From a bacterium (lineage in GTDB: Bacteria > Patescibacteriota > Minisyncoccia > Phycocordibacterales > UBA918), in NCBI GenBank assembly GCA_043719295.1, contig JAYSUD010000012.1:26790-90789 (forward strand): a stretch of DNA of 64,000 nucleotides, read 5' to 3'. Each line of letters starts with the position of its first letter. Within the stretch, counting starts at the first letter, position 1. Positions 6,158 to 42,725 of the stretch are shown here, one piece after another. The translations under genes and the position numbers were made by a program. A model generated the notes under the pieces. That model was not told the DNA's origin, ran no database searches, and saw only the letters and a list, made by a program, of their open reading frames with translations.

Positions 6158-7600
6158 TTATGATTCTAACCTCTTAAACAAATTTTCAGGTTTTTTGTTG
6201 GAAAGGATTGCTTCTTTTATAATTACATTAGTTTCGGGCATAATTGGGTAGAGCAACCGAGCGATAGTATAGAGTTCAGTTACAAGTTCAATAATTATTT
6301 TTCGTGCAGCAGGCTTATCAACTTTTACCAACTTAAACGGCTCAGTCACAGCAATTTTTTCATCAAGCTCCCCCACCTTTTTCCATATATAATCACATGC
6401 CCCTTGGAAGTTGTATGTTTCAAGTGCATCACTATACTCTTTGGGAAAATCAGCTGATGCAGGTTTTAGAATTGGTTCATCAAGATGTGTCTCTGCCATC
6501 TGCATGATACGCGCAACTAAGTTCCCTAAACCGTTAACTAAGTTTGCGGTGTAGTACTCATCCATTTTTTCCCAAGTTAAATCGGAGTCGTCAAATGGAT
6601 GTACATGACGGAGAAATATGTAGCGCGTTGCGTCAGTGCCATATTTTGCCACAAGCGCATATGGTGAAATAACATTTCCTAACGACTTACTCATCTTGTG
6701 TCCATCACTATTGATGAAGCCGTGATATATCACTTTGTCTGTTGCTTTAATTTGCGCACTTTTCAACATCGCCTGCCACATCACTGACTGAAAACGCACT
6801 TGGTCTTTACCAGCAACCTGGAGTGTCTCTCCATCAACCCAGAACTTTTGAAAATTACCTTCGGTGTCCTCTGGCCAACCAAGTGCTGAGATGTAGCTTG
6901 TTAATGCGTCAAACCATACATACATTATTTGCTCGTCATCCCCAGGTACAGGAACACCCCAGTCCATCCGTGATTTTTCGCGTGAGATTGAAAAGTCTTC
7001 AAGTCCTGCCTGCACAAAATTGAGTGCCTCTTGTCGTCGCCACTCTGGTGCAATAACGTTTTCATTTGAGAGATACAACTCAAGGTAACTTTGGTACTTT
7101 GAAAGTCGGAAGAAATAATTTTCTTCTTCAACTTCTTCTGCATTTGTTAGATGGATGGCACACATCTTCCCTCCTTCAAGTTCCGATTCTTTATAAAATA
7201 ATTCGCACCCTACACAATACAACCCAGTATATTTCTTTTTGTAGATGTCACCTGCATTTACACACTTCTCCCAAATTGCTTGCGCCGCTTTCTTGTGTGC
7301 TTCATCAGTGGTGCGAATAAACTTATTGTATGACAAGTTAAATGCCCCTTTGAGCTTTTGAAACTCTGCCGCATAGTGGTCTACATACGCCTGTCGCGAC
7401 TGCCCTTTTTCATCAGCTTTTTGCGCAATCTTCTGTCCATGCTCATCAGTCCCCGTATTAAAAAACACCTCGTGACCCATGAGCCGCCAGTAGCGAGCGA
7501 GTGTATCTGCCTGTATAAAATCAAGCCCATGCCCCATGTGTGGGTCAGCGTTTACGTACGGAAGTGTAGTTGTTATGTAGCGTGCTTTTTTGTCAGACAT
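6158..7600 (-). CDS. metG: Methionyl-tRNA synthetase (short form)
   Basis: TTLPYVNADPHMGHG (HIGH region) and KMSKSLGN motifs. 480 aa, with no C-terminal dimerisation domain. Confidence 0.95.
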   Translation of the reverse strand: MSDKKARYITTTLPYVNADPHMGHGLDFIQADTLARYWRLMGHEVFFNTGTDEHGQKIAQKADEKGQSRQAYVDHYAAEFQKLKGAFNLSYNKFIRTTDEAHKKAAQAIWEKCVNAGDIYKKKYTGLYCVGCELFYKESELEGGKMCAIHLTNAEEVEEENYFFRLSKYQSYLELYLSNENVIAPEWRRQEALNFVQAGLEDFSISREKSRMDWGVPVPGDDEQIMYVWFDALTSYISALGWPEDTEGNFQKFWVDGETLQVAGKDQVRFQSVMWQAMLKSAQIKATDKVIYHGFINSDGHKMSKSLGNVISPYALVAKYGTDATRYIFLRHVHPFDDSDLTWEKMDEYYTANLVNGLGNLVARIMQMAETHLDEPILKPASADFPKEYSDALETYNFQGACDYIWKKVGELDEKIAVTEPFKLVKVDKPAARKIIIELVTELYTIARLLYPIMPETNVIIKEAILSNKKPENLFKRLES

Positions 7601-7669
7601 AATCTAAATACAGTACCATAGCCCTTAAATAAAAAAAGTGGCCGGTCCCATTAAGGACCGGATCCATCT

Positions 7670-8161
7670 TTACAACAACGAGCTGAAACGACTTGTCATA
7701 TCAGATTCCAGAGGAGGTTCTTTCATGAGCACATTTGCTAGCGCCGTCCTCATATTCGTGACCGACTTTTGGTTGCGCGTCTTTCCAATATCTTTTGGCC
7801 ACTCATTGCGAGAAAGTCTATGATACCAGAAGTATCCTGGGCCAAAGGGTTTAGCTTGAATAAGAACTGGGCCTCTGGATACTATTCCAATTGGCTTCAA
7901 ATCAAGTATCCAGCCGCTTTTCAGAGCAATCCAGGAGTGTTCGTTATCACAAACTTTTCCATCTTCGAAAAGAGTTATAAACGACCCCGATACAACACGA
8001 GCTTGAATCAATGGGGCAACAGCTCGAGCAATAATATGGCAGGTGCGTGGCTCCCCAAAGTAATCTTCCCGCAACAGAAGTTCCATAAGATATTCAGCGT
8101 ACACAAAACGATATCGATCTTTCGGGCTAATATCGTTTACCTGGTGATAGAACATCTCCAC
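7670..8161 (-). CDS. Hypothetical protein
   Basis: 163-aa ORF co-oriented with the flanking metG and glyQS. The overlapping plus-strand ORF 7769-8314 is judged spurious. No motif recognised. Confidence 0.35.
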   Translation of the reverse strand: MEMFYHQVNDISPKDRYRFVYAEYLMELLLREDYFGEPRTCHIIARAVAPLIQARVVSGSFITLFEDGKVCDNEHSWIALKSGWILDLKPIGIVSRGPVLIQAKPFGPGYFWYHRLSRNEWPKDIGKTRNQKSVTNMRTALANVLMKEPPLESDMTSRFSSLL

Positions 8162-8211
8162 ATCCTCCCCTGTCTGTCGGTTTCTGTATTCAGTCCGAGA
8201 GTACGGTACCT

Positions 8212-9606
8212 CTATTTCAAGAAAGAAACAAGGTCAGCGATTGCTACGCGCTCTTGCACTCCAGTATCACGGTTACGGACGGTGACGGTGTCTTTCAAAG
8301 AGGGGTCTTCTTGACCTAAGGTTTCAAAGTCAATGGTGACACATGCAGGGGTTCCAATTTCGTCTTGTCGGCGGTAGCGTTTTCCGACGTTGCCGTTGTC
8401 ATCAAATTCAGCGCGCATTTCTTTTGAGAGAAGAGCAAATACTTCTTCTGCTTTAGCAACCAGTTCTGGTTTGTTTTTAAGGAGTGGAAATACTGCTACT
8501 TTGATTGGTGCAAGATTCTTGGGGAGTCGTAACACAGTACGTGTTTCGCCACCAAGTTCATCTTCATCATAAAACTCAGTCATGACCGCTAAGAAAGTCC
8601 GGTCGAGTCCAGCAGAAGTTTCTACTACATGGGGAATATATTTCTCGTTGGTATATGGATCAGTGTATTCCATTGAAACTCCTGAAAATGTTTGATGTTG
8701 GGTAAGGTCATAGTTACCTCGTGCATGAATACCTTCAAGCTCTTTAAAACCAAATGGGAAATTGTATTCAATATCAAATGCTGCTTTTGCATAAAAGACC
8801 AGGTTTTCATGTTCATGAAAACGGAGGTTTTCTGGTTTGAAACCCATATCAATGTAGTACTGCATTCGTTTTGCTTTCCACACTTCGTAGATAGTCATTT
8901 CGTCAACCGGAGAAACGAACATCTGCATTTCCATTTGTTCAAACTCTCGCTTACGGAAGATGTACTGTCGTGGTGCAATTTCATTTCGGAATGCTTTACC
9001 AATTTGCGCAATTCCAAAAGGGACTTTAACCCGCGTACTATCGAGGACATTTTTAAAGTTTATATAGATACCCTGGCACGTTTCTCCTCGTAAGTACGCA
9101 GGTTCTTTTGTCCAATCTTCAGAGAAGTTTCCGAGGTTTGTTTGTGCGAGCAAGTTAAACTGTCGCACTTCACCAAAATTCTTTTGCCCGCACTTTGGAC
9201 ACACAAGCTTTTCACGATTAGCATCAAAAAGTTCATTAATTTCTTCAACTGACATTTTTTCGTCAGCAAATACATCAAGTTCTTCAAGTAAGTGGTCGGC
9301 TCGTGATCGAGTGTTACATTCTTTACATAAAACCATCGGGTCTGAAAAACCGCCAACGTGACCTGATGCTTCCCATACTTTTGGATGTGTCACAATTGCT
9401 GAATCAAGACCTACAATATTTCGCTCTCCTTGCACCATCGCCTTCCACCATGATGCTTTAATATTATTTGCGAGTTCAACACCATAGGGACCATAATCAA
9501 ACGACCCCACAAACCCGCCATAAATTTCACTGCCCTGAAACACAAATCCTCTTCGCTTACACAACGATACAATTTTCTCCATCTTTTCGGAATTATTTTC
9601 TGCCAT
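8212..9606 (-). CDS. glyQS: Glycyl-tRNA synthetase, dimeric alpha2 (class II) type
   Basis: MEKIVSLCKRRGFVFQGSEIYGGFVGSFDYGPYGVELANNIK is the canonical alpha2-GlyRS N-terminus. Class II motifs follow. Confidence 0.95.
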   Translation of the reverse strand: MAENNSEKMEKIVSLCKRRGFVFQGSEIYGGFVGSFDYGPYGVELANNIKASWWKAMVQGERNIVGLDSAIVTHPKVWEASGHVGGFSDPMVLCKECNTRSRADHLLEELDVFADEKMSVEEINELFDANREKLVCPKCGQKNFGEVRQFNLLAQTNLGNFSEDWTKEPAYLRGETCQGIYINFKNVLDSTRVKVPFGIAQIGKAFRNEIAPRQYIFRKREFEQMEMQMFVSPVDEMTIYEVWKAKRMQYYIDMGFKPENLRFHEHENLVFYAKAAFDIEYNFPFGFKELEGIHARGNYDLTQHQTFSGVSMEYTDPYTNEKYIPHVVETSAGLDRTFLAVMTEFYDEDELGGETRTVLRLPKNLAPIKVAVFPLLKNKPELVAKAEEVFALLSKEMRAEFDDNGNVGKRYRRQDEIGTPACVTIDFETLGQEDPSLKDTVTVRNRDTGVQERVAIADLVSFLK

Positions 9607-9630
9607 AATTTTCGTACAATATCATTAATT

Positions 9631-11583
9631 TCATTCTTTAGCACGGACTACCCCTGAAGCATCGTTATTTCCACTTTCAGATGGAATCTTTGTCGTAATC
9701 GCGGGACTGGTATCACGCACGGTGGTACTGGTGAATCGGTCTGTTGCTTCAATGCGTTGTTCACTAATAAGTGTTGGAGTGGTGCCGATTTGAAGTGAAC
9801 GAGGTAAGAGTGAGACTTGGAAAGAGGTGTATGTTTCTTTGTTAGATTCAATGTTGCCTGCTTTCCACGTGATAGCTCTTGTTGTCGGATTGTATGTCAC
9901 AGCTCCATTACCTTCAACAATATTAAGCCATGATATATACGCTGGTAAGCTTGCTGTAACTACAGCATTCGTGACATTGTTTGAACCATTTTGTACTACA
10001 AGCGAAACAGTATATGTTGTTGCCTTGTCTGATACAGGAGGTACAGGACCCGTATCTTTGAAAATGCCGTTGTTGTAACTCACAACACCTACCAAGTTTG
10101 GCGCACTGACGACTTTGATAACACTTGCGGCAGTTCCTGTTAACTGTTCGGCAACTTGGTTTTCAGATACACGTCGTGCTTTTGCATTGACGTTAATGTT
10201 GACCTGTGGAGTTTGTGACACTTCTCCTGTTGGTTCGATACTAAAAGAAAGTCGTTCTGATTCTCCTGGAGTCACCTGCTCTAAACCTTGCGTATTTGAA
10301 ACATCCCACACGATAGTATTTTTCGCTTCATCAAAATAACCTCCTGAAGGACTCACTTCAGAAACTGAAAAAGCGTTACCTCCAAGTTTTACTTCAACGA
10401 TAATATCGTAGAGTGTATCGTCAAGGGAATTAGTTAAAGCAAGCTGTACGTTTGCTCGTTTACCAGGAGCTATTGCAACTTCAGACTTATCTGAATTATC
10501 AATTTTCATATCGATGTCTAAAAATGGTTGCTCGATTTTAAACTCAGTTTGTGCGGTTGCGAAAATTGAAGCAAGACTTTGCGGATCTTTTTCATTTGGT
10601 ACACCGACGGTAAAGTTAATGGCGTTGTCGTCACTCTCTTTTCCAACGACAATTCCCGCTATAGTGATTTTTGTTTCTTTTTCGGGTTCAAGATTTTTAA
10701 TAAGCCACATACTTTCGGTATGTGTTGGTGGTGGAGTTGCTTTTGTGAAATCAAACCCTTCTGGATATTCCGCTTTAACCAATATCTCAGAAAGAGCTGT
10801 TGGTGAGTTTGAAATAATAGTGAGAGTAACCTCAGTCTCTTGCCCTGAAGAGATTTTCTTTAACGTGTCAGCTCTGACAATAATGGGTGATGAACTAATT
10901 TTAAATCGCAACGGTTCTGCTTCTTTAAAAAAAGTAGCATTTGAACCTTGGACGCGATATTCGATTTCTACTTTCACAATCTTCTCTTCATTCTCTTCGC
11001 CAAAAACCAGCGCACGCATGGGGATGTTGACGGTCTCACCTTGTTTAATTGTTTGTAAGGGTAAACGTTCAGTGAATAACTCTTTACCTTCCTCAGTTAC
11101 TGACTTGGTTCCTTTAGGGTACTCAACGATAAGTACTGCTGATTCAATCGAGACTGAGTTGTCATTTGTGATACCAATCTGCATTTGAAGTTCCGATCCT
11201 CCCCCTACGGTAAAAGGTCCTGTAGCTGAAAGGGTGATGTTTTCTCCAGAAATACTTTTACCGCCAAACAGTAAGAAGAGACTTGAAACCACAATCGCTA
11301 GCATGAAAAAACCTAAGCCTGCAAATAAAATTTTAGATCGATATCCTTTTTTTCTTTTTTGCATACCTATGTCTTCTCTAAAACTTTGTGTGCTTTCCTC
11401 TGTAGTATAAACCTCTTGTACAGGAGGTAATACAATAGGTTTAGGCGGTTCTTGCCAAGAAGTAGGAGCCGTATGTACGACATCACTAAGCGGGTGACTG
11501 ACTGAAGACACTTTTTTTGTTCCCCGCTCATAAAGCCGTTTTCGCACTTCTTCAATACTTTCTTGATCTTTAATACCACTCAT
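9631..11583 (-). CDS. Large membrane-anchored extracellular protein (single N-terminal TM helix, beta-rich Ser/Thr/Val ectodomain)
   Basis: 650 aa with a cytoplasmic basic N-terminus, a TM segment ILFAGLGFFMLAIVVSSLFLLF, then long low-hydrophobicity repeats of T/S/V/N-rich beta-strand-like sequence. This is typical of CPR surface proteins. No catalytic motif found. Confidence 0.6.
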   Translation of the reverse strand: MSGIKDQESIEEVRKRLYERGTKKVSSVSHPLSDVVHTAPTSWQEPPKPIVLPPVQEVYTTEESTQSFREDIGMQKRKKGYRSKILFAGLGFFMLAIVVSSLFLLFGGKSISGENITLSATGPFTVGGGSELQMQIGITNDNSVSIESAVLIVEYPKGTKSVTEEGKELFTERLPLQTIKQGETVNIPMRALVFGEENEEKIVKVEIEYRVQGSNATFFKEAEPLRFKISSSPIIVRADTLKKISSGQETEVTLTIISNSPTALSEILVKAEYPEGFDFTKATPPPTHTESMWLIKNLEPEKETKITIAGIVVGKESDDNAINFTVGVPNEKDPQSLASIFATAQTEFKIEQPFLDIDMKIDNSDKSEVAIAPGKRANVQLALTNSLDDTLYDIIVEVKLGGNAFSVSEVSPSGGYFDEAKNTIVWDVSNTQGLEQVTPGESERLSFSIEPTGEVSQTPQVNINVNAKARRVSENQVAEQLTGTAASVIKVVSAPNLVGVVSYNNGIFKDTGPVPPVSDKATTYTVSLVVQNGSNNVTNAVVTASLPAYISWLNIVEGNGAVTYNPTTRAITWKAGNIESNKETYTSFQVSLLPRSLQIGTTPTLISEQRIEATDRFTSTTVRDTSPAITTKIPSESGNNDASGVVRAKE

Positions 11584-11727
11584 ACATTATTTGATTGTAT
11601 CTAGTATACCGCACAAAGAGACCGTGGAGAACGATGGATTCTGTGTACTTTAGAACCCCTCCATTATCTCGTGGTACCCGTATTAAAAAGTCATATGTTT
11701 AATACGGGGAAGATTGTGGATGGGTTC

Positions 11728-12309
11728 TTATAGCTGACTTACGGTCACCCCTTCCTTAATTGCTTGGGTAATTGAAGATGACATATCAGTTGTATACGAA
11801 GAAAGAGCCTCTTCAATTGAAGGGGCATATATAACAGAAACCCAAGCAGGTGAAGGCGCCACATAGCCGAGCTCAGAGAGAAGTCGCAGAAGAAATAACT
11901 CACGTGCAAGCAAGGCAATCTCGGTATGTTTTTCCTCTAACGCAAGTAATTCAAAAGTATCGTCATATACTTTCGAAAGCTGCATTTCTCCATGTACATA
12001 TCGACGCAATTGGGTCACTACAAAATTTACCGTACCCCGCTTCTGCCGAGTATCTGCACTCATGAAGGGATTTCCAAGCGCTTCAACACTTCCAATGCGC
12101 CACCCACTTTTCCCTTTGATTAACGAAACACGTATGTGTGAAAAGTCTTGTAGTGCCGAACGTTGTTTACTTCGTTCTTCGCGAACCGACCGTGCGGTAC
12201 CCCACAGCATCCCTGCCTCTTTAGAAAAGAGTAAATAGTTTTTGTCAGAAGTGTTGTTATTAGTGCTGCCGCAAACCAAAGCTTCAGTGATGTACGTTTT
12301 ATAGCTCAC
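11728..12309 (-). CDS. recO: DNA repair protein RecO-like (short form)
   Basis: The N-terminal OB-fold pattern YITEALVCGS...DKNYLLFSKEAGMLWGTARSVRE..SKQRSALQDFSHIRVSLIKGKSGWRIGSVEAL parallels the RecO consensus (aiVL...ge.D.i..llT...G......A.Ga....s......LqpfsllelelyrGr...l.l.saE). Confidence 0.5.
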   Translation of the reverse strand: MSYKTYITEALVCGSTNNNTSDKNYLLFSKEAGMLWGTARSVREERSKQRSALQDFSHIRVSLIKGKSGWRIGSVEALGNPFMSADTRQKRGTVNFVVTQLRRYVHGEMQLSKVYDDTFELLALEEKHTEIALLARELFLLRLLSELGYVAPSPAWVSVIYAPSIEEALSSYTTDMSSSITQAIKEGVTVSQL

Positions 12310-12310
12310 A

Positions 12311-15300
12311 TTATTTCTTTATGATTTGTACTGTGAATGAATAATCTCCTGCTTTTATTTCTGAACCTTCTGCATTGCCAAAGTCGAGAGCATCTGCACC
12401 GACTACTTTCATAATCTCTGTTTTGAATTGAGATACGATTGCCTCCCCACCATCTGAGGTTTGAACAGTTAGCGTAATTCTATCTTTTGCCTCAAGCCCT
12501 GTTTGCTTTCGCAGGTCTTGTACTGCTCGAATAAATTCCCGCACATCCCCTTCAGCTTTAAGTTCTGGGGTGATATCAGTATTAAGGTCAAAAGTCAGAC
12601 CAAATTTATCATCATCAAATTTTTTATACTGAATTTTTTTAACATTTAGCTCATCAGCTAAAATCGGTTCAAGCTCTGACCAGTAACGTGACGCCTCTGC
12701 GCTATCAGAAATAGAAAACCCACTCAACGGCTGACGGACAGGAATTTTTTCTTTCGTTCGAATATTTAAGCCAAAAGTTGCAAAGCTTCTAATATTTGAC
12801 ATTCCTACAATTAAATCAGTATCAACTTCCCCTCCCTTTGGCCAATCTGCGAGATGCACACTTTCTGCATCAACCTCTCCTTTAACCCTCTGCCACAGAT
12901 ACTCAGCGTAAAACGGCATTGATGGGGCCATCACAAGCGCAAGTGTTCGAAGTGTGTGACGAAGTGTGCCGAGCGCGAGCGCCTTGTCTCTAGCATCGTC
13001 CGCTTTAAAGCGTTCACGTGAGCGTCGCAAATACCACACCGAAACATCGTCGATAAAATCAGTAATTGGACGGGTTGCTTTATCAAGTTCATAGTTTCTA
13101 AAGCCTGAAGTAGTTTCGGCCACCAGTTCATAAAGTCGTGCAACTATCCATCGATCAAGTACGTTCATCGACTCTCCACTCGCTTCTGTACCGTCAGCGA
13201 ACATCTCGTACATTGCAAGTACATTATGAAGTCGTCCAATATTTTTTCGCTCAAGTTCTTTAACTCCTTTCTCTGAAAAGTTTAAATCTTCACCTCTAAT
13301 AATTGACGAGGAGAGTAGGTAAAAGCGCATAGAATCGGCACCAATAGTGTTCGCAATCAACATAGGGTCAGGATAGTTTTGGAGTGACTTACTCATCTTC
13401 TTCCCGTCTTCAGCGAGCACCAGACCATTGGTAATAACATGTTCAAACGGTGACTTACCAAAGAGTGCTACACCTAACACCATCATTGAATAGAACCATC
13501 CACGTGTTTGATCAACACTCTCAGCAATAAACTGTGCCGGAAAACCAACATTATTTTTTCCATCAAAGATGTCGAGGTTTTCAAATGGATAGTGATTCTG
13601 TGCATAGGGCATTGCTCCTGATTCAAACCAGCAGTCAAACACATCTTTTACACGTTCAAGTTTTGTACCATCATTGTCATAGAGTTCCACGTCATCAATG
13701 TACGGTCTATGGAAATCAAGTGCATAGAAATCATTGTGAGGCATTTTAGTAAACGGAATTTGAAGTACCTCGGCATTGTCCATGTACCCTTCCTTTTTAA
13801 TCTCTAGTGACCGTTCAAGGTCAGCCCCTTCTGCTACACACCGTAACGCATACGTAGAACTTGCATGTCCCACAATCAAAATTGTTTTCCCTTTGTGTTT
13901 TCCATCAATGTCATACAAGAAACTCCCAACACGTGTTGCAACGTTGAATCGATTTTCTACATCGGGAACGTCTTTAGTAAATCGTTCCCGTTGACTTGCA
14001 TACAATGCTTCGTATTCATCCCACGTCTTTCCTTCTAAACTTGGACCTGTCTGAAGTTCGGTAATGCGATTGTCTTCAAGAACACAATTGGCATCAAGCC
14101 CAAGAACTCCTGCAACAGTCTCTGCGGTTTGTCGGGTGCGTTGCATCCCTGAATGGATAATAAGATCAATCCCTTTGTCTTTAAGTTTTAAAGCCGACGC
14201 TTCGCATTGCGCCTTACCATCTGTAGTTAATGGATTATGCTCATCTTTGATTGCATCAATTGATCCAGAAAGGTTACTCTCTGCTTCACCATGACGCATA
14301 ACAAAATACGTGTTCCCACTTTTTGGAACATACTCTTGGAGTTCTTTTAACGATGAAAAGACTTTATATTCTTTGGTTACTGGGTTACGCCAAATTGGAA
14401 GTGGGGCTCCCCAGTACCGTTGCCGTGACACCGCCCAGTCGCGCGCACCTTCAAGCCACTTACCGAAACGATTGGTTCCAATGTGTTCGGGTACCCATTT
14501 TACTTTGTTGTTCTCTGCCACAAGCTGATCTTTTATTTTAGTTACTTCAACAAACCATGAGGTAGTAGCGTAATTTAAAAGCGGCGTATCACAACGCCAA
14601 CAGTGCGGATAACTGTGGGTTATGTTTTCTTTTGCAAAAATTCGTGCTCCGTGATCATCTCTATTTGTTTGCAGTTTTTTCAACACTTCAATATCAGTAT
14701 CAAGGTGTGTTACTCCTGCTTTGTCGTCATCTTTTGGTTTTACCAACAGTCCTTTGAAGTCAGTAACAAAGTCCATGAAGTGTCCTGTATTATCTACATG
14801 ATGCACAATCGGGATGTTGTTTGCTTGTGCGAGCTTCATATCGTCATCTCCATACGCTGGTGCAATATGAACTGCTCCCGTTCCATCTTCACCTACTTCA
14901 ACATAGTCAGCATGCCAAATCTTCCACGCATTTGTTTTATCTATGTCTTGGCTTTCAAGATAGTTAAACGGCGGAAGATACGATTTCCCTACAAGGTCAG
15001 ACCCTTTCATTTCTTCAACTATTTCATAGGCAACGTCACCTAGTTGTGAGAGTCGTGCTTTTGCAAGAATCACAAATTCTTCTTTTGTACTTTCATCATT
15101 CTTGATTTTCGCCCGCACGTATTCAATATCATTATGGACCGCGGCAGCCATATTTCCTGGCAACGTCCACGGAGTTGTTGTCCAAACCAAAAGTGAGGTG
15201 TCGGACACCTTACTCTCATTATCAAGAAGTGGCAGTTTAACCGTAACCGCAATATCTTTAATATCCTTGTATCCTTGATTTACCTCAAAGTTTGAGAGCG

Positions 15301-15883
15301 TTGTTCCACAGCGTGGACACAGGTGCATGGTTTTAAATCCCTCATAGACGAGTCCCTTTTTATGAAGCTCCGCAAAGACCCACCACACACTTTCCGTGTA
15401 CGTTGAGTCCATAGTCTTATAGTCATCCTCCATATCAGCCCATCGTCCCATGCGAGGAATGATTCTCTTCCAATCGTCAGCGTATTCTAAAACAGCATCA
15501 CGAGCTTGTTCGTTAAAATTCTGTACTCCATATTCTTCAATGTCACGTTTGGTTGCAAGGCCAAGCTTTTTTTCAATGAGGTTTTCAAGCGGTAAGCCGT
15601 GACAGTCCCATCCCCACTTTCTAGGTACGCTATATCCATTCATTGTCCAAAAACGCGGAATCGCATCTTTGATTGATCCGGCTAAGATGTGCCCATAGTG
15701 TGGAAGCCCCGTTGCAAACGGAGGTCCATCGTAAAAAATAAATTCACCATTTGGTGCTTCTTTTTGTACACTTTTATTAAAAATATCATTCTCCTTCCAA
15801 AAGGCTAACATTGCTTCTTCTCGCAGTGCCACTTCACTTTTTGGCACTCCTTCTTCATCGTTTTTGTGTGTATGTGTATTCAT
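12311..15883 (-). CDS. ileS: Isoleucyl-tRNA synthetase, type 2 (eukaryote-like), with an inserted histidine-phosphatase (PGAM-like) domain
   Basis: PPFATGLPHYGHIL (HIGH region), KMSKS and DCWFESGAMPYAQNHYPFEN identify type-2 IleRS. The ORF is 1190 aa. About 180 aa (aa ~525-700, nt ~13784-14311) between 'WGAPLPIW' and 'HRPYID...DCWFESG' carry YFVMRHGEAESN ... ILIVGHASS, the RHG...H catalytic signature of the histidine phosphatase superfamily. Confidence 0.95.
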   Translation of the reverse strand: MNTHTHKNDEEGVPKSEVALREEAMLAFWKENDIFNKSVQKEAPNGEFIFYDGPPFATGLPHYGHILAGSIKDAIPRFWTMNGYSVPRKWGWDCHGLPLENLIEKKLGLATKRDIEEYGVQNFNEQARDAVLEYADDWKRIIPRMGRWADMEDDYKTMDSTYTESVWWVFAELHKKGLVYEGFKTMHLCPRCGTTLSNFEVNQGYKDIKDIAVTVKLPLLDNESKVSDTSLLVWTTTPWTLPGNMAAAVHNDIEYVRAKIKNDESTKEEFVILAKARLSQLGDVAYEIVEEMKGSDLVGKSYLPPFNYLESQDIDKTNAWKIWHADYVEVGEDGTGAVHIAPAYGDDDMKLAQANNIPIVHHVDNTGHFMDFVTDFKGLLVKPKDDDKAGVTHLDTDIEVLKKLQTNRDDHGARIFAKENITHSYPHCWRCDTPLLNYATTSWFVEVTKIKDQLVAENNKVKWVPEHIGTNRFGKWLEGARDWAVSRQRYWGAPLPIWRNPVTKEYKVFSSLKELQEYVPKSGNTYFVMRHGEAESNLSGSIDAIKDEHNPLTTDGKAQCEASALKLKDKGIDLIIHSGMQRTRQTAETVAGVLGLDANCVLEDNRITELQTGPSLEGKTWDEYEALYASQRERFTKDVPDVENRFNVATRVGSFLYDIDGKHKGKTILIVGHASSTYALRCVAEGADLERSLEIKKEGYMDNAEVLQIPFTKMPHNDFYALDFHRPYIDDVELYDNDGTKLERVKDVFDCWFESGAMPYAQNHYPFENLDIFDGKNNVGFPAQFIAESVDQTRGWFYSMMVLGVALFGKSPFEHVITNGLVLAEDGKKMSKSLQNYPDPMLIANTIGADSMRFYLLSSSIIRGEDLNFSEKGVKELERKNIGRLHNVLAMYEMFADGTEASGESMNVLDRWIVARLYELVAETTSGFRNYELDKATRPITDFIDDVSVWYLRRSRERFKADDARDKALALGTLRHTLRTLALVMAPSMPFYAEYLWQRVKGEVDAESVHLADWPKGGEVDTDLIVGMSNIRSFATFGLNIRTKEKIPVRQPLSGFSISDSAEASRYWSELEPILADELNVKKIQYKKFDDDKFGLTFDLNTDITPELKAEGDVREFIRAVQDLRKQTGLEAKDRITLTVQTSDGGEAIVSQFKTEIMKVVGADALDFGNAEGSEIKAGDYSFTVQIIKK

Positions 15884-16786
15884 AACAAGTGTTCTTATGT
15901 ATATCAGACATAAATAATAAAAGCATGTGTATCAGACATGCCCATGCATAGTACCACGATTTTTAAAAGCTAACAGATGTCTCGGTTGGGCCCATGCGTT
16001 TCCCTGCAGGGGCCCAATTGAATTTATCGAAACGCTACCACAACACTTGGTCCCACATGAATGTGGCGATTCGGTTGAGGTTTTAAAGTCACAACCTCTG
16101 CATCTTTGGGGCATAGAACCTCAGCCCAAAAGGCACAAGATGCGGCAAGTAATGCGAAGTATTGCTCCGGGAACATCGATGCCTCCTTTCGGTCATTGAT
16201 ACTTTTAGAATACTCCTTTCTTCTTGGGTCACAAGTACCTAAAGAGGAAAACACAAAAACAGCAAAACCGTGATTCCAAAAAGATGAATCACGGCTGTCC
16301 TCAGCATGGCACGCCCTCGCGCCATGGGTATTATTTATTGGGATGCATTTATGCAAATGGCAACCAACTTTTGAAAAAGTCAGATCGACATTCCCGCGCA
16401 GACTTGACTCCATCCCCCTTAACAAATGGGCGAACAGGTACCCAAATCAGTCTATCGATTAAGTTTCTGTCTTGCGCATCAACACGCACAACAAAAAAAT
16501 AAAAGAACAGACAAAATGGCACAACAGTAAGAGAACAAATCGCACCATACACAAACAAGCGCTCGAGATCCAAAGATTTTCCTCCCTCTTAAATTACATC
16601 CCGAATTCTTGGAGCATCTTACGATACTCCACTTCTTCTTTTTGGATATTTTGTTGATGTAACTGCTGGCGACGAACCCGTCTCCATACGCTAAACCAAC
16701 GATGAACATGATCTGATGACATTTCTTACCTCGCTTAAAAGCCCTCTACCCAAGAAAACTATATAACGAATAAACGTTACTGTCAA

Positions 16787-18478
16787 TTACAACCTTTCAG
16801 GTGCTTCCGTTCCTAAAACCCACAATCCATTTTTGATTGTTTGTTGTACCACCCCTGCTAGAAGTACTTTGTATGGCGCGAACTCATCTGCAGTATCAGC
16901 AATTTTTTCTTGCGCATAAAAGCCGTTAAACGCTCCTGCAAGTTCTGTAATGAAGGTAACGATATGATGAGGTGCTCGTTCTTCAAGTGAAGTAACAACA
17001 ACTTCAGGGAATCGATAGACCAACCGTTCAATCAAGTAGGGTGATAGAGGAACAGCAGTCGCACCTGCGTGTATACCAAGCTCTTGCGCTTTCATAATTG
17101 CTGAGCCAATACGTGCAGACGTATATTGTAAATAGGGTCCTGAGTCACCTTCAAACGAAAGAGCTTTTTCTTTGTCAAATACAATATTTGATCCAACGCC
17201 ACTTCTAAGTATCTGGTACTTAAGTGCAGCTACCGCAATCTGGTCTGTTAGTTCGTCTATATTCTCTGAACGTGTTTCAAGCGCTCTTACATGTGCAGCT
17301 TCTTTCATCTCTTCAAGGAGTGATTCTCCCGTGAGTACATTACCTTTTCGTGAAGACATCTTACCGGTAGTGAGTGTCAAAAAGCCCGTAGCAATATGTT
17401 CGAGACTTTTATTTGCGACCTCAGGGAATAGTTCCTCAATTGCAGTAAAGACTACTTTGAAATATTCAGACTGCTCGTTTGCTGTAACAATAAGCGACTG
17501 TGTCCAGTTTGGCGTGGTTGCTACTTTTAATGTAAAGTGCCCAATGTCTTTTGCTTCGTATGTAGGGAGGCCTTTTGAACTTATGAAAACTCGAGTGTGT
17601 AAACCAACTTTCACTCCTTTGTATACTGTTGCACCTTCACTTTCTTCAAACACATCTCCTACATGCTCTTTTACAATCTGTAATCCAGGAATACTTGCTT
17701 CACTTTCAAAAATTTCAACATCAAATTCTGTTCCAAGCATCAGACATAGATCTCGGAGGCGCGCTCTTGATGTAGCAATTCCTGCATTGCGAAGTGCCAT
17801 CAATGTGTCGTCCGTACCCGCATACAGGGCTTGATTGATTTTAATTATTTCTTCTTTCTCTTCTCCCTCTTTCTCGTATGCATCGTTTCCATTTCTATAG
17901 GCAAGACCGAGGTCTTGAATATCGTCTGGGTTTAAATTATTTTTCTGTAAACCCCACACGCCTTTTGCTACCGTAAGACCAATATCAGAGGGATAGTTAC
18001 ACCGGACAACCTTGGCACCTGAAAACACAAAAAGACGACTGATTGATTCGCCAATAATGTTTCCAACAAGGTTTCCAATATGGAGCGGTTTAAATAAATT
18101 GGGACTCGTATATTCAATGAGAACAACTTCATCTGTTTGCATCTTATTACTCCCCCATTGTGTCCCTTGTTTTTCTGCTCGTAAAATCTCTTGGGTGAAA
18201 AAATCTCGAACGAGATAAAAGTTTAAAAATCCTGGACCTGCAATCTCAATTTTTTCTACGTATTCAATTTGATCAGCAATTGTTGTCAGTATGAGTTCAG
18301 CAACTTCCCGCGGGGACTTTCCCGCTTCCTTTGCTACCACCATCGCCACGTTACACGCATAGTCTCCGTGCGACAGATCACTTGGATGCTCTACAGTAAA
18401 ATCAACCACAGGTAGCCCCAAGGTTTCAAGTGCATCACTAATTGCAGTTTTTAATACTTCTTCCATATACGCATACAA
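16787..18478 (-). CDS. argS: Arginyl-tRNA synthetase
   Basis: Class I HIGH variant (LHIGNLVGNIIGES) and KMSSRKG (KMSK-like) motif. 563 aa. Confidence 0.95.
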   Translation of the reverse strand: MYAYMEEVLKTAISDALETLGLPVVDFTVEHPSDLSHGDYACNVAMVVAKEAGKSPREVAELILTTIADQIEYVEKIEIAGPGFLNFYLVRDFFTQEILRAEKQGTQWGSNKMQTDEVVLIEYTSPNLFKPLHIGNLVGNIIGESISRLFVFSGAKVVRCNYPSDIGLTVAKGVWGLQKNNLNPDDIQDLGLAYRNGNDAYEKEGEEKEEIIKINQALYAGTDDTLMALRNAGIATSRARLRDLCLMLGTEFDVEIFESEASIPGLQIVKEHVGDVFEESEGATVYKGVKVGLHTRVFISSKGLPTYEAKDIGHFTLKVATTPNWTQSLIVTANEQSEYFKVVFTAIEELFPEVANKSLEHIATGFLTLTTGKMSSRKGNVLTGESLLEEMKEAAHVRALETRSENIDELTDQIAVAALKYQILRSGVGSNIVFDKEKALSFEGDSGPYLQYTSARIGSAIMKAQELGIHAGATAVPLSPYLIERLVYRFPEVVVTSLEERAPHHIVTFITELAGAFNGFYAQEKIADTADEFAPYKVLLAGVVQQTIKNGLWVLGTEAPERL

Positions 18479-39842: not shown

Positions 39843-42725
39843 CTATTGGCAGGCTTCGCAGGTGGCATCCTCAGCCACATGCAACCTAATCTCTCCTTTA
39901 AACGTTGGCTTTTTTTCTATACTTACCTTAGCTGCGTCTAATTCTGCATGCTGAATTGGTGAGACTGTTGCAAGTGGAGATAAAATTGGTTCTGCTGTAG
40001 GTACAACAACTTCAGGAGCTATCACATCAACTGGTCCTTCGCCATTTCCTTCTTGCTTCTTTCGAATCTGAGTTCCCGCTGCATTAATTGATGATTTTTC
40101 AACCTGTGATGCACCAAGTGACCGGAGGTAATAGGTTGTTTTTACTCCCATCTCCCATGCGTATATATAGAGGTCACTTACCTCTTTTCCTGATGTACCA
40201 GAATAGAAAATGTTCAATGACTGCGCTTGGTCAATCCACTTCCCTCGTTGAGCTGCAGCTTTAACAAGCCACTTCATATCAATCTCAAACGTCTCTTTGT
40301 ATTTGTCTTTCAAATCTTGCGGTACATTGTCAAGATACTGAATTGACCCATCGTTGTACTTAATAGCATCAAGCATCTCTTTGCTCCATAGCCCTAGTTT
40401 TTTTAAGTCAGCCACAAGAGCGTTGTTAACAATAATGAAGTCTCCTGAAATATTACTTTTTACATAAATATTTTTGTAGATTGGTTCAATACCTGGAATA
40501 GAACCTGCAATATTTGAGATTGTTGCCGTTGGCGCAATTGCCATACAGTTACTATTTCGCATACCATACTTCGCGATTGATTCTCGAACGGGTGCCCAAT
40601 TGAGACTTTCAGTTGCATCAACACCTGTACTTAAGCCTCTGTTTTCTTCAAGGATTTTAATCGTATCTACCGGCAAGATTCCTCTGTCCCACTTACTACC
40701 TGCAAAACTTTCATAAGCTCCTCGCTCTCGTGCTAACTCACTTGAAGCAGCTATTGCAGCATGTGACACCACTTCCATTGAAGTATCGGCAAATGCAACA
40801 CATCGGTCTGATGCGAATGGAATACCAAGCTCATATAACGCATCTTGGAATCCCATCACCCCAAGTCCAACCGGTCGATGCTTCATGTTTGAATGCTGTG
40901 CTTCTTTTGTAGGATAGAAGTTAAGGTCAATCACGTTATCAAGCATTCGCATTGCAGTAGTTACTGTTGCAGTTACTTTAGCTCCGTCAAACTCGCCCTT
41001 AGTTATGTGTTCTGCAAAGTTTACTGATCCCAGGTTACAAACCGCTGTCTCTGTAGCAGACGTATTAAGTGTGATTTCAGTACAAAGGTTTGAGTTGTGA
41101 ACAACCCCTGCATGGTCTTGCGGCGAACGAAGGTTTGACGGATCTTTAAACGTAACCCATGGATGCCCTGTTTCGAAAAGCGAACTAATGTGTTTCTTCC
41201 ACAGGTCACGAGCCTTCATTTTCTTAAAGAGATGAATCTCTCCATTGTCCGCCATTTTTTCATACTTAATGTATAGCGTTTCAAATTCTTTTCCGTATGT
41301 CTCCGTTAAGTCGACAGCTTCATCAGGCGACAAGAGTGTCCAGTCTCCATCTTCTTTTACTCGCTTCATAAAGAGGTCTGATACCCATGAGGCAGTGTTC
41401 ATGTCGTGAGCTCTGCGTCGTTCGTCTCCCGTATTTTTCTTAAGCTCCATGAAATCCAAAAAGTCATAGTGCCAGTTCTCCATATACACACACGTCGCAC
41501 CACGCCGACGTCCTGAACGGTTAATAGCAACCGTTACATCATTTGCAATTTTTAAGAACGGGATAGTTCCTTGTGAGGTAATCCCTGCAGTTTTAATTAA
41601 CGCACCCGTTGCACGAAGCTTTGTCCATGCGGTACCAATTCCTCCCGCCCACTTTGAAAGTTGGGCATTGTCTCCAAATACTTTAAAGATATGATTGAGG
41701 TCATCTTCTACCACATTGAGGTAACAAGAAGAGAGCTGCGGATGGGGTGTTCCTGCATGGAACAAGGTTGGTGTTGAAGGTACAAACCGTAGCGTTGACA
41801 TCACTTCATAAAACTCTATTGCCTTTGCTTCTTTTTCTTTTTCTCCAAGTGCAAGACCCATCGCAACGCGCATCCACATGAACTGTGGTGTCTCAAGGAT
41901 ATGACCATCTGAGGCGCGAATAAAATATCGGTCATTAAGTGTTTCAACACCAAGATAACGGAACAAATCGTCTCGTTCTGGCATAATTGCATCGGCAATT
42001 TTCTTGAAGTCAAACTCAAGCATGTTTGAAGCCAACTTTTTATCAGCTACTGCGATAGTGATGTTGCGAGAAAATGCATCACGGTACTTCTGTACAAAAT
42101 CGGCATTAGTAATTGCAATATCATCTGCAATTGCTTCTTCATACAGGCGTGCACAGAGTTGTCGCGCTGCAATTTGTGAGTACGCAGGATCAAGTTCAAT
42201 TTTCGCACGCAACACTAACGTTACAAGTTTAGAAAGTTCTTTGGTTGAAATACCATCGTACACTTCTCTTTCTAGTTGCGTAATGATGCTATCAAGATCA
42301 ATTTCTGCTTCAATTCCCTTTGTAAATTGTGCTATGTATGCACGCATTGATTCACGAGAAAACTGTTCTTCACCCTGCCCTGTTGTAATCATCAACCTGT
42401 TTTCTTCGATAGCTTCAATGACTTCGTCCTTTCGAACTTCCGTCTGCATGAACCGGTACAAAATGTAGTGTTTTGCAACCACAAAGTACCCTCGCTCCAT
42501 AAGGGTCTGTTCTACCAAGTCCTGAACATGCTCAACAGTTGGTATTTCTTCTTTTCCTTCAAACAACGCTTGTAGTTTTGTAACTACACGATCTGCCATC
42601 TGACGGAGTGTTCCATCATCTACAGGTGTGTTTTCTGCAGCAAATGCTTTGCGCATTGCAATAACAATTTTTTCTGAGTTAAAAGGAACTTTTTCCCCAT
42701 TTCTTTTTGTGACTTCGGTAAACAT
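39843..42725 (-). CDS. nrdA: Ribonucleotide reductase class Ia large subunit with N-terminal ATP-cone
   Basis: ATP-cone (VTKRNGEKVPFNSEKIV), NLCTEITL active-site loop, and a C-terminal CEACQ Cys pair. 960 aa, longer than E. coli NrdA. Confidence 0.95.
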   Translation of the reverse strand: MFTEVTKRNGEKVPFNSEKIVIAMRKAFAAENTPVDDGTLRQMADRVVTKLQALFEGKEEIPTVEHVQDLVEQTLMERGYFVVAKHYILYRFMQTEVRKDEVIEAIEENRLMITTGQGEEQFSRESMRAYIAQFTKGIEAEIDLDSIITQLEREVYDGISTKELSKLVTLVLRAKIELDPAYSQIAARQLCARLYEEAIADDIAITNADFVQKYRDAFSRNITIAVADKKLASNMLEFDFKKIADAIMPERDDLFRYLGVETLNDRYFIRASDGHILETPQFMWMRVAMGLALGEKEKEAKAIEFYEVMSTLRFVPSTPTLFHAGTPHPQLSSCYLNVVEDDLNHIFKVFGDNAQLSKWAGGIGTAWTKLRATGALIKTAGITSQGTIPFLKIANDVTVAINRSGRRRGATCVYMENWHYDFLDFMELKKNTGDERRRAHDMNTASWVSDLFMKRVKEDGDWTLLSPDEAVDLTETYGKEFETLYIKYEKMADNGEIHLFKKMKARDLWKKHISSLFETGHPWVTFKDPSNLRSPQDHAGVVHNSNLCTEITLNTSATETAVCNLGSVNFAEHITKGEFDGAKVTATVTTAMRMLDNVIDLNFYPTKEAQHSNMKHRPVGLGVMGFQDALYELGIPFASDRCVAFADTSMEVVSHAAIAASSELARERGAYESFAGSKWDRGILPVDTIKILEENRGLSTGVDATESLNWAPVRESIAKYGMRNSNCMAIAPTATISNIAGSIPGIEPIYKNIYVKSNISGDFIIVNNALVADLKKLGLWSKEMLDAIKYNDGSIQYLDNVPQDLKDKYKETFEIDMKWLVKAAAQRGKWIDQAQSLNIFYSGTSGKEVSDLYIYAWEMGVKTTYYLRSLGASQVEKSSINAAGTQIRKKQEGNGEGPVDVIAPEVVVPTAEPILSPLATVSPIQHAELDAAKVSIEKKPTFKGEIRLHVAEDATCEACQ

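Follow-up and report, generated by a model that had tools for sequence, protein, structure and literature searches.

Catalytic domains added within the catalytic core of an aminoacyl-tRNA synthetase are rare, and the classic example is the CP1 editing domain (connective peptide 1) of the isoleucyl-, valyl- and leucyl-tRNA synthetases (IleRS, ValRS and LeuRS), which is universal and ancient and acts on mischarged tRNA. Another IleRS with an extra enzyme domain, in this case an N-acetyltransferase (GNAT) domain, is described by the NCBIfam family NF040702, on which we found no paper. Among phosphatases, a PhoE/CobC-like domain is joined to a nucleic-acid enzyme in the RNase H/CobC-type bifunctional acid phosphatases (Mycobacterium tuberculosis Rv2228c type, NF005567). 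Here we describe a histidine phosphatase domain nested in the CP3 subdomain of an IleRS, encoded by the ileS gene of a Patescibacteriota genome (GenBank assembly GCA_043719295.1). The whole stretch of DNA that was analysed, hereafter the window, comprises 64,000 nucleotides of contig JAYSUD010000012.1 (positions 26,790 to 90,789), and a preliminary description of it, prepared from the letters alone, had drawn attention to the insert. Since nested enzyme domains in synthetases are already known (CP1 and the GNAT-bearing IleRS), what is added here is breadth, two genomic forms, multiple copies and a parallel in ValRS.

Each of these systems differs from the present one. Unlike CP1, the insert is confined to certain lineages, lies in CP3, and has an unrelated fold and a different predicted chemistry, i.e., phosphomonoester hydrolysis. 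The window enzyme matches NF040702 through its IleRS parts only (300.8 vs. 1999 bits). NF005567 is among the best NCBIfam matches of both the insert and its stand-alone relatives, at scores far under the cutoff (51.9-55.8 vs. 326), and Rv2228c-type proteins are end-to-end fusions with another partner enzyme, whereas the insert is nested. The arrangement places a second, unrelated putative hydrolase in CP3 of an essential and much-studied enzyme class. We found no description of a histidine phosphatase in or beside IleRS or ValRS in open-access papers and preprints, although such an absence is not proof. The sequences are already public with automatic Pfam labels, and the NCBI labels are often no more specific than "class I tRNA ligase family protein" or "histidine phosphatase family protein, partial".

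The host synthetase and its nested domain

The ORF listing gives ileS as a single open reading frame (ORF) of 1190 codons with no interruption, in line with the preliminary description, which had called it a type-2 ileS with an unbroken fusion. The product reaches 865 bits against the NCBIfam ileS profile TIGR00392 (cutoff 621.4), the insert notwithstanding. Its best solved relative is the Priestia megaterium IleRS2 (8c8u; 697 bits, E 3.5e-208), with yeast or Candida IleRS at 658-691 bits, as compared to 311 bits (E 1.8e-91) for the type-1 IleRS of Staphylococcus aureus and 285 bits for P. megaterium IleRS1. By these comparisons the product clearly belongs to type 2 and not to type 1. All IleRS domains and motifs of the type-2 enzymes (eukaryote-like and mupirocin-resistant; 8c8u, and 7d5c and 8wnd from Saccharomyces cerevisiae) are present and collinear, the differences being that the window enzyme has a 201 aa domain in place of a 6-residue CP3 turn and that its lineage has lost the CP3 zinc-knuckle cysteines. 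The coordinates of the features are collected in Table 1.

Table 1. Coordinates within the window of ileS, its parts and signature residues, and the neighbouring synthetase genes
Feature	Position	Strand	Remarks
ileS ORF, 1190 aa + stop	12311..15883	-	type-2 isoleucyl-tRNA synthetase with nested phosphatase domain
IleRS N-part, aa 1-519	14327..15883	-	first Rossmann half with HYGH, CP core, CP1 editing domain, CP2, start of CP3; aligns to 8c8u residues 12-478
HIGH signature HYGH, aa 62-65	15689..15700	-	H62, G64, H65 invariant in 121 sequences
Inserted histidine phosphatase domain and linkers, aa 520-720, 201 aa	13724..14326	-	PF00300; replaces 6 residues of 8c8u
RHG motif, aa 530-532	14288..14296	-	R530 and phospho-acceptor H531; invariant in close and divergent inserts
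R582	14138..14140	-	second phosphate-binding Arg; invariant in close and divergent inserts
E609	14057..14059	-	presumed general acid/base, from the family mechanism; invariant in IleRS inserts
H673 (GHASS)	13865..13867	-	second catalytic His; invariant in close and divergent inserts
Fusion-specific C-terminal linker F-x-x-x-P-H-N, aa 711-717	13733..13753	-	F711, P715, N717 invariant and H716 99% in close homologues
IleRS C-part, aa 721-1190	12314..13723	-	remaining CP3 (LDFHRPYID...), second Rossmann half with DCWFESG and KMSKS, anticodon-binding domain, DUF5915 C-terminal domain; aligns to 8c8u residues 485-909
KMSKS signature, aa 829-833	13385..13399	-	K829, S831, K832 invariant in alignments
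argS	16787-18478	-	
glyS	8212-9606	-	dimeric type
metG	6158-7600	-	

The synthetase parts look intact. The motifs WGAPLPIW and DCWFESG begin at aa 491 and aa 750, respectively, and the CP1 editing motifs are invariant in our alignments (WTTTPWT, W234-T240; G334, G336, H339 and D348). Structures of isolated editing domains (1wk8 and 1ue0) match aa 204-382, and in the C-part Pfam assigns Anticodon_1 to aa 910-1054 and DUF5915 to aa 1095-1189. An AlphaFold2 (AF2) model of the full protein, a check that the preliminary description had proposed, has a pLDDT of 83.4 and finds 8c8v as its top PDB fold match (TMt 0.72). Judging from its intact motifs and from purifying selection, the host is probably a working type-2 IleRS that aminoacylates tRNA-Ile.

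The insert interrupts this framework at one point. The Pfam tRNA-synt_1 match of the IleRS is split in two around it, and His_Phos_1 (PF00300) is found on aa 527-706 of the whole protein (92.5 bits, E 3.5e-26, cutoff 21.7); the excised insert scores 96.7 bits (E 1.8e-27) in the profile check that had been suggested for it. In the alignment to 8c8u, aa 20-519 correspond to chain residues 12-478 and aa 721-1148 to residues 485-909, so that aa 520-720 occupy the place of residues 479-484. The distance from WG.P.P.W to DCWFESG is accordingly 259 residues, as compared to 58 in an insert-less IleRS of the Candidate Phyla Radiation (CPR), which agrees with the extra block that had been reported before DCWFESG. 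GC content is even over both borders, and the match as a whole lies well outside what chance would produce. The motifs YFVMRHG (starting at aa 526), RHGEAESN (530), HSGMQRT (577) and IVGHASS (670), and with them the phospho-acceptor His of RHG and the catalytic His further downstream, all lie where the preliminary description had read them. Its boundaries (13780-14315, aa 523-702) located the insert correctly and were slightly short at the C-terminal end.

As modelled, the insert is a complete, self-contained branch-1 histidine phosphatase fold of ~190 aa. The AF2 model of the insert alone has a pLDDT of 96.1 and a pTM of 0.92. R530-H531-G532 follow a modelled strand at 525-530. A Foldseek search with the model of the insert retrieved 313 PDB matches at E <= 0.001, and the best 50 listed are all members of the histidine phosphatase family (e.g., 4ij6; E 9e-14, TM 0.78). 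The closest known counterparts are the small branch-1 phosphatases of the PhoE/PspA/GpgP/CobC type (1h2e, 4ij5, 4pz9 and 9mmh): the model has TM 0.75-0.79 and rmsd 2.5-3.3 Å to PspA, the riboflavin-pathway histidine phosphatase 9mmh, the mycobacterial glucosyl-3-phosphoglycerate phosphatase GpgP, and PhoE. These proteins share with the insert a length of ~190-200 aa, the RHG His, two Arg, the Glu and the second His, and presumably the same phospho-histidine mechanism. In contrast, they are only 22-26% identical to the insert and are free-standing, whereas the insert is nested in a synthetase (or, in its relatives, encoded by an adjoining gene) and has the F..PHN linker.

The preliminary description had also called the insert PGAM-like, i.e., phosphoglycerate mutase-like. 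This holds for the fold. For membership among the mutases it does not, as judged from the profiles, since the cutoffs for the cofactor-dependent phosphoglycerate mutases (dPGMs) are not reached (TIGR01258, 18.3 vs. 81.7 bits; NF038349 dPGM_arch, 51.4-53.1 vs. 225; GpmB, 41-45 vs. 261). Moreover, dPGMs carry HGNS after the second His, and the insert has GHASS there. The remaining NCBIfam equivalog cutoffs are likewise not reached by the insert (CobC TIGR03162, 59.7-63.6 vs. 162.9; PspA, 48.9-53.1 vs. 350; SixA, 34-37 vs. 74.5), and the SixA profile covers only its first ~70 residues.

As for the site, in the yeast IleRS the stretch from the "SRNRYWG" linker to "D527/W529" is the CP3 subdomain, residues 459-526 (PMC7955072). 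The insert position, placed by alignment, lies in CP3, a variable excursion bounded by the "RYWG.P.P.W" linker and "DCWFESG". The structural comparison proposed in the preliminary description thus placed the site, although in neither of the two subdomains, CP1 and CP2, that it had named. The topology of CP3 differs in each solved IleRS, and a zinc motif is present there only in the Thermus enzyme (PMC7191050), a variability which suggests that the site is structurally permissive. Both feet of CP3 supply residues that line the pocket for the tRNA 3' end and for reveromycin (PMC7955072). In an insert-less CPR relative the insertion point falls between "...GSIKELKAKIK" and "DLHRPYID...", with CxxC...CxxC around it. 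Neither the window enzyme nor its close relatives retain the corresponding zinc-knuckle cysteines, which are still present in other insert-bearing enzymes. A coupling of zinc-knuckle loss to the insertion was considered and is ruled out by the presence of both cysteine states among insert-bearing enzymes.

We also considered whether the insert might be an intein or another self-splicing or mobile insertion. All Pfam matches of the protein are to synthetase or His_Phos families, the residue after the conserved ...PHN at the insert end is Asp rather than Cys, Ser or Thr, and the entire insert folds as a phosphatase. The "domesticated mobile insertion" offered in the preliminary description is therefore unsupported if an intein or a mobile element is meant; the phosphatase family otherwise occurs as the gene just upstream of ileS.

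Distribution of the nested and stand-alone forms

The same Pfam architecture, PF00300 included, is present in 120/120 best full-length homologues (63-88% identical, 1153-1233 aa), which were drawn from NCBI, JGI, ENA and Logan assemblies and whose named sources are Kaiserbacteria, Nomurabacteria, Parcubacteria, Paceibacterota and Patescibacteria. We would like to note that a Logan contig 100% identical to the window over 9.6 kb represents the same population and was not counted as independent support. An exhaustive search of 1.84 billion cluster representatives with the insert only gave 4149 matches at E <= 0.001 and 331 at E <= 1e-10. We examined 163 proteins, i.e., the best 150 of this search and 13 matches from a further search, and in 103 of them the domain has IleRS sequence on one or both flanks, with identity of the IleRS parts to the window enzyme down to ~32-45%.

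The catalytic residues are conserved throughout. In the alignment of close homologues, R530, H531, N537, R582, E609 and H673 are invariant in 121/121 sequences, and all of these except N537 are invariant also in 26 inserts from divergent clusters (29-55% identity). Against a relative with 81% identity, the insert of the window gene has a dN/dS of 0.083, as compared to 0.053 (N-part), 0.064 (catalytic core) and 0.25 (C-terminal domain); all of these values are rough since dS is above 1 and saturated. By these ratios the insert is under strong purifying selection, and it is apparently catalytically active.

To sample species genomes, type-2 IleRS loci from GTDB were compared by full-length alignment, insert-only alignment being too divergent; the resulting picture is a sample and not a census. 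The insert is present in 8 of the 80 loci listed, namely in Peregrinibacteria, Peribacteria (with two copies), Yanofskybacteria, Spechtbacterales, Paceibacterota, a metagenome-assembled genome (MAG) of the Patescibacteria group and two MAGs named "bacterium". It is absent, among the same 80, from five Saccharibacteria, one Magasanikiibacteriota, two other Peribacteria and all clearly non-CPR loci. All insert-bearing genomes that have names are Patescibacteria. The survey of CPR IleRS that the preliminary description had proposed thus does find the insert in CPR relatives.

The closest free-standing relatives of the domain are ~190 aa long and have the shape "MKLNNKYFLLRHG ... GELRKLN", where they terminate; the F..PHN linker is missing from them. 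We restricted this set to proteins with natural-looking termini whose genomic context was checked. The raw "stand-alone" class from the representative search had included contaminants, namely P0147, which is a contig fragment of 636 bp, and several proteins that terminate in the junction motif of IleRS. In 6/6 genuine stand-alone genes examined, an insert-less ileS starts -13 to +10 bp after the phosphatase stop. Where a contig extends far enough, argS precedes the phosphatase gene, and ileS (931-991 aa) is followed by a small ORF, by recO and by the gene of a large DUF11/CLIPPER protein. This order recurs in the window (argS, ileS, recO-like gene, DUF11 protein), with the phosphatase inside ileS instead. 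The stand-alone gene was also seen in a cluster of the form smpB-infC-rpmI-rplT-argS-phosphatase-ileS.

A metagenome scan with the stand-alone family, again a sample (of at least 80 loci) and not a census, extends this linkage. The phosphatase gene lies immediately upstream of ileS in 46 of the 80 loci listed (at a median of 9 nt from the first IleRS residue aligned, and preceded by argS in 39) and the domain lies inside ileS, in CP3, in 27. Two further loci have the phosphatase between argS and ileS with one extra ORF, two have no IleRS in a short downstream stretch, and three have no downstream sequence. The family is therefore tied to ileS in 75 of the 77 informative loci. The linkage holds too for an IleRS subtype that is just 31-39% identical to the window enzyme. 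IleRS inserts are 32.7% identical to the stand-alone family and 33.2% identical to one another. On this genomic evidence, the phosphatase family in CPR bacteria is almost always tied to ileS, as a CP3 insert or as the gene directly before it.

Some observations on individual loci may be added. A divergent IleRS subtype from CPR metagenomes (L087 5570-8545 and L089 2709-5663) is 30-39% identical to the window enzyme and to the best fetched matches; the two share a distinctive N-terminus and have the phosphatase gene directly upstream, and in L087 "DVGNPWLDAG" replaces "DVFDCWFESG". At the expected place of ileS downstream of another stand-alone phosphatase (L114 755-1057) lies an ORF with the sequence "YVYVLRSEKDKNLYIGY", which by eye looks like a GIY-YIG nuclease. 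In a Patescibacteria locus (L082 3983-5567), a more distant stand-alone phosphatase (P0013) overlaps the end of an APH/choline-kinase-like gene by 8 bp, and its context is a GH57/glycosyltransferase (glycogen-type) cluster, unlike that of the ileS-linked family.

Copy number and position vary: in some IleRS the domain occurs twice in tandem, or it is found outside CP3, for instance just before the anticodon-binding domain. Variants with two phosphatase domains include P0221 and P0232 (1419 aa), P0244, P0268 and P0239, some with both copies in tandem in CP3; in P0232 the CP3 site appears empty. Every complete copy in the multi-copy IleRS keeps the core R, H, R, E and H.

A parallel branch is found in ValRS. 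P0139 is a ValRS with four tandem phosphatase copies, and when it was used as query, one to four copies were found in 71 of the best 120 ValRS matches, the named hosts of such ValRS being Gracilibacteria and Peregrinibacteria. Among the listed ValRS, at least one copy lies nearly always in the homologous loop between "WG..IP" and "DVLDTWFSS", which spans ~211 residues or more with the insert and ~38 without it. A few ValRS (among P0281-P0398) have a copy, or their sole copy, upstream of the WG..IP motif. The ValRS inserts form a separate sequence group and are 25.5% identical to the IleRS inserts.

Possible function and alternatives

Because the catalytic residues are conserved, the fold is confidently predicted, dN/dS is low and the IleRS motifs are kept, we read the ileS product as bifunctional, i.e., as a synthetase with a predicted phosphatase. 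Taken as a whole, the best explanation, which we hold to be probable though far from secure, is a bifunctional IleRS whose phosphatase would act on a small phosphorylated metabolite or nucleotide and which selection keeps together with the IleRS. The chemistry can be proposed with fair confidence from the mechanism of the family: H531 would attack a phosphomonoester and become phosphorylated, the phosphate being held by R530, R582 and H673, and E609 would protonate the leaving group and then activate water. The strength of the genomic linkage suggests that selection favours a phosphatase that is expressed with, and placed at, the IleRS, and keeps the two co-expressed and co-located. The substrate would be a small molecule, rather than protein or RNA, whose turnover matters where IleRS works. 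A small molecule is favoured because the nearest folds act on small molecules and because the module is acidic (pI 5.3 and net charge -8 for the insert; median pI 6.0 for IleRS inserts and 5.6 for ValRS inserts). An addition of ~200 aa that is kept in hundreds of lineages with minimal genomes points to a real need, and it bears on translation or metabolite handling in a large, mostly uncultured part of the bacterial tree.

Several points weigh against this explanation. Since the insert scores below the cutoff of every NCBIfam equivalog profile, homology gives no substrate that could be assigned to it, and the preference for a small molecule, drawn from nearest neighbours and charge, is weak. 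The ends of CP3 line the pocket for the tRNA 3' end, which makes a tRNA-directed role geometrically conceivable. Among the copies embedded in ValRS, the Glu is lost in 25/84 and the second His in 9/84, so that not every copy of the wider phenomenon need be catalytic. Finally, our view is confined to 64 kb of the genome, and a second, insert-less ileS elsewhere in it is conceivable.

A more specific proposal, which we regard as unlikely though worth stating, is that the branched-chain class Ia synthetases have in this phosphatase a dedicated partner for a new step in the maintenance of translation, which would either clear a 3' phosphate or pyrophosphate from tRNA or destroy a phosphorylated by-product or inhibitor at the synthetase. 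If so, it would amount to a second, CPR-specific proofreading or repair domain beside CP1, nested in some synthetases and an operon-coupled subunit of others.

Among the rival explanations, the one that survives best, although it is rather unlikely, is a built-in tRNA repair activity, in which the domain, tethered beside the pocket for the CCA end, would remove a 3'-phosphate, a phosphate derived from a 2',3'-cyclic end or a 3'-pyrophosphate (left, e.g., by damage or toxin modification) before charging. Toxins can pyrophosphorylate the tRNA CCA end. The phosphatase family is embedded in translation gene clusters and linked to ileS in nearly all informative loci, a related branch is lodged in the same loop of ValRS, which is likewise a class Ia enzyme with editing, and the CP3 flanks form the tRNA 3'-end/reveromycin pocket. 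Nevertheless, the close structural neighbours are all small-molecule enzymes, the domain is acidic in both IleRS and ValRS, and there is no evident reason why such repair should be restricted to Ile and Val. We know of no RNA-end phosphatase in the histidine phosphatase superfamily, and no PADLOC defence family was matched at E <= 0.01 by the insert or by two stand-alone relatives.

Rather than serving the synthetase, the domain might be a housekeeping operon phosphatase that was captured in the permissive CP3 loop of a large, constitutively expressed gene, with co-expression or a smaller genome as the only gain. CPR genomes are small, CP3 topology varies between solved IleRS, and inserts that occur with or without zinc-knuckle cysteines, number one to four per protein and are placed at several sites speak of a tolerant scaffold. 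We consider such a capture improbable nonetheless, as the stand-alone form almost always abuts ileS, often with overlapping stop and start and across IleRS subtypes that are 31-39% identical, as an internal insertion cannot come from simple read-through of neighbouring genes, and as the F..PHN fusion linker is strongly conserved.

The domain could instead be a regulatory sensor that binds a phosphorylated metabolite and signals through CP3 to active-site elements, thereby tuning IleRS, with catalysis slow or secondary. Its insertion point is flanked by active-site and tRNA-pocket residues, and those ValRS copies that have lost the Glu or the second His still keep the phosphate-binding R-H-R. 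In contrast, the full catalytic set, Glu included, is invariant in IleRS inserts down to 29-55% identity, which would be superfluous for a pure binder, and the stand-alone operon form cannot signal through CP3. A sensor is thus distinctly improbable.

A role as a protein phosphatase seems very improbable. It would remove inhibitory phosphates from the IleRS or a partner, such as the products of HipA-type kinases, which are known to phosphorylate other synthetases. The superfamily counts protein phosphatases among its members, e.g., SixA, to which the insert has a weak match (34 vs. 74.5 bits), and the coupling to the synthetase is tight and physical. However, that match is confined to the N-terminal 70 residues, the domain shares its cap region with the small-molecule enzymes, to which its fold is also closest, and no kinase is conserved in the examined neighbourhoods.

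Lastly, an artefact, i.e., an assembly chimera (raised as an alternative in the preliminary description and now excluded) or a sequencing frameshift joining two genes, has a negligible probability given the architecture common to all 120 nearest homologues from many assemblies, the 103 divergent cluster representatives or fragments with IleRS flanks, the insert in 8 GTDB species genomes, the even composition at the borders and the low dN/dS of the insert (0.08).

Surroundings of ileS in the window

Four synthetase genes (metG, glyS, ileS and argS) lie on the minus strand within 12 kb (6158-18478), in an order that is conserved in relatives; a gene for a 650 aa DUF11/CLIPPER-type surface protein and a short recO-like gene interrupt the run. 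The gap between argS and ileS (15884-16786, ~900 bp), which is the slot of the stand-alone phosphatase in relatives, contains no ORF of at least 150 aa. We searched it for a decayed phosphatase gene by six-frame hmmsearch with filters off and found nothing (best E 0.2), and there is no second His_Phos copy anywhere in the window. An Rfam scan of the window at gathering thresholds gave only four tRNAs, none of them in this gap, and a permissive scan one chance-level match. In the 81%-identical relative the spacer is 634 bp long and has a 108 aa ORF that is not conserved in the window.

The only part of the spacer that is conserved with the relative L094 (93-100% identity) lies just upstream of the ileS ATG (~15889-15964, minus strand). 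Within it, a partly palindromic motif of 15 nt, ATGTCTGATA[C/T]ACAT, occurs twice in direct orientation; this motif is duplicated in L094 too and may be an operator or promoter element of ileS. Elsewhere in the window, two minus-strand ORFs (1108-2937, 609 aa, and 33896-35719, 607 aa) have no NCBIfam match at E <= 1e-10, and the ORF at 39843-42725 encodes the alpha subunit of a class I ribonucleotide reductase.

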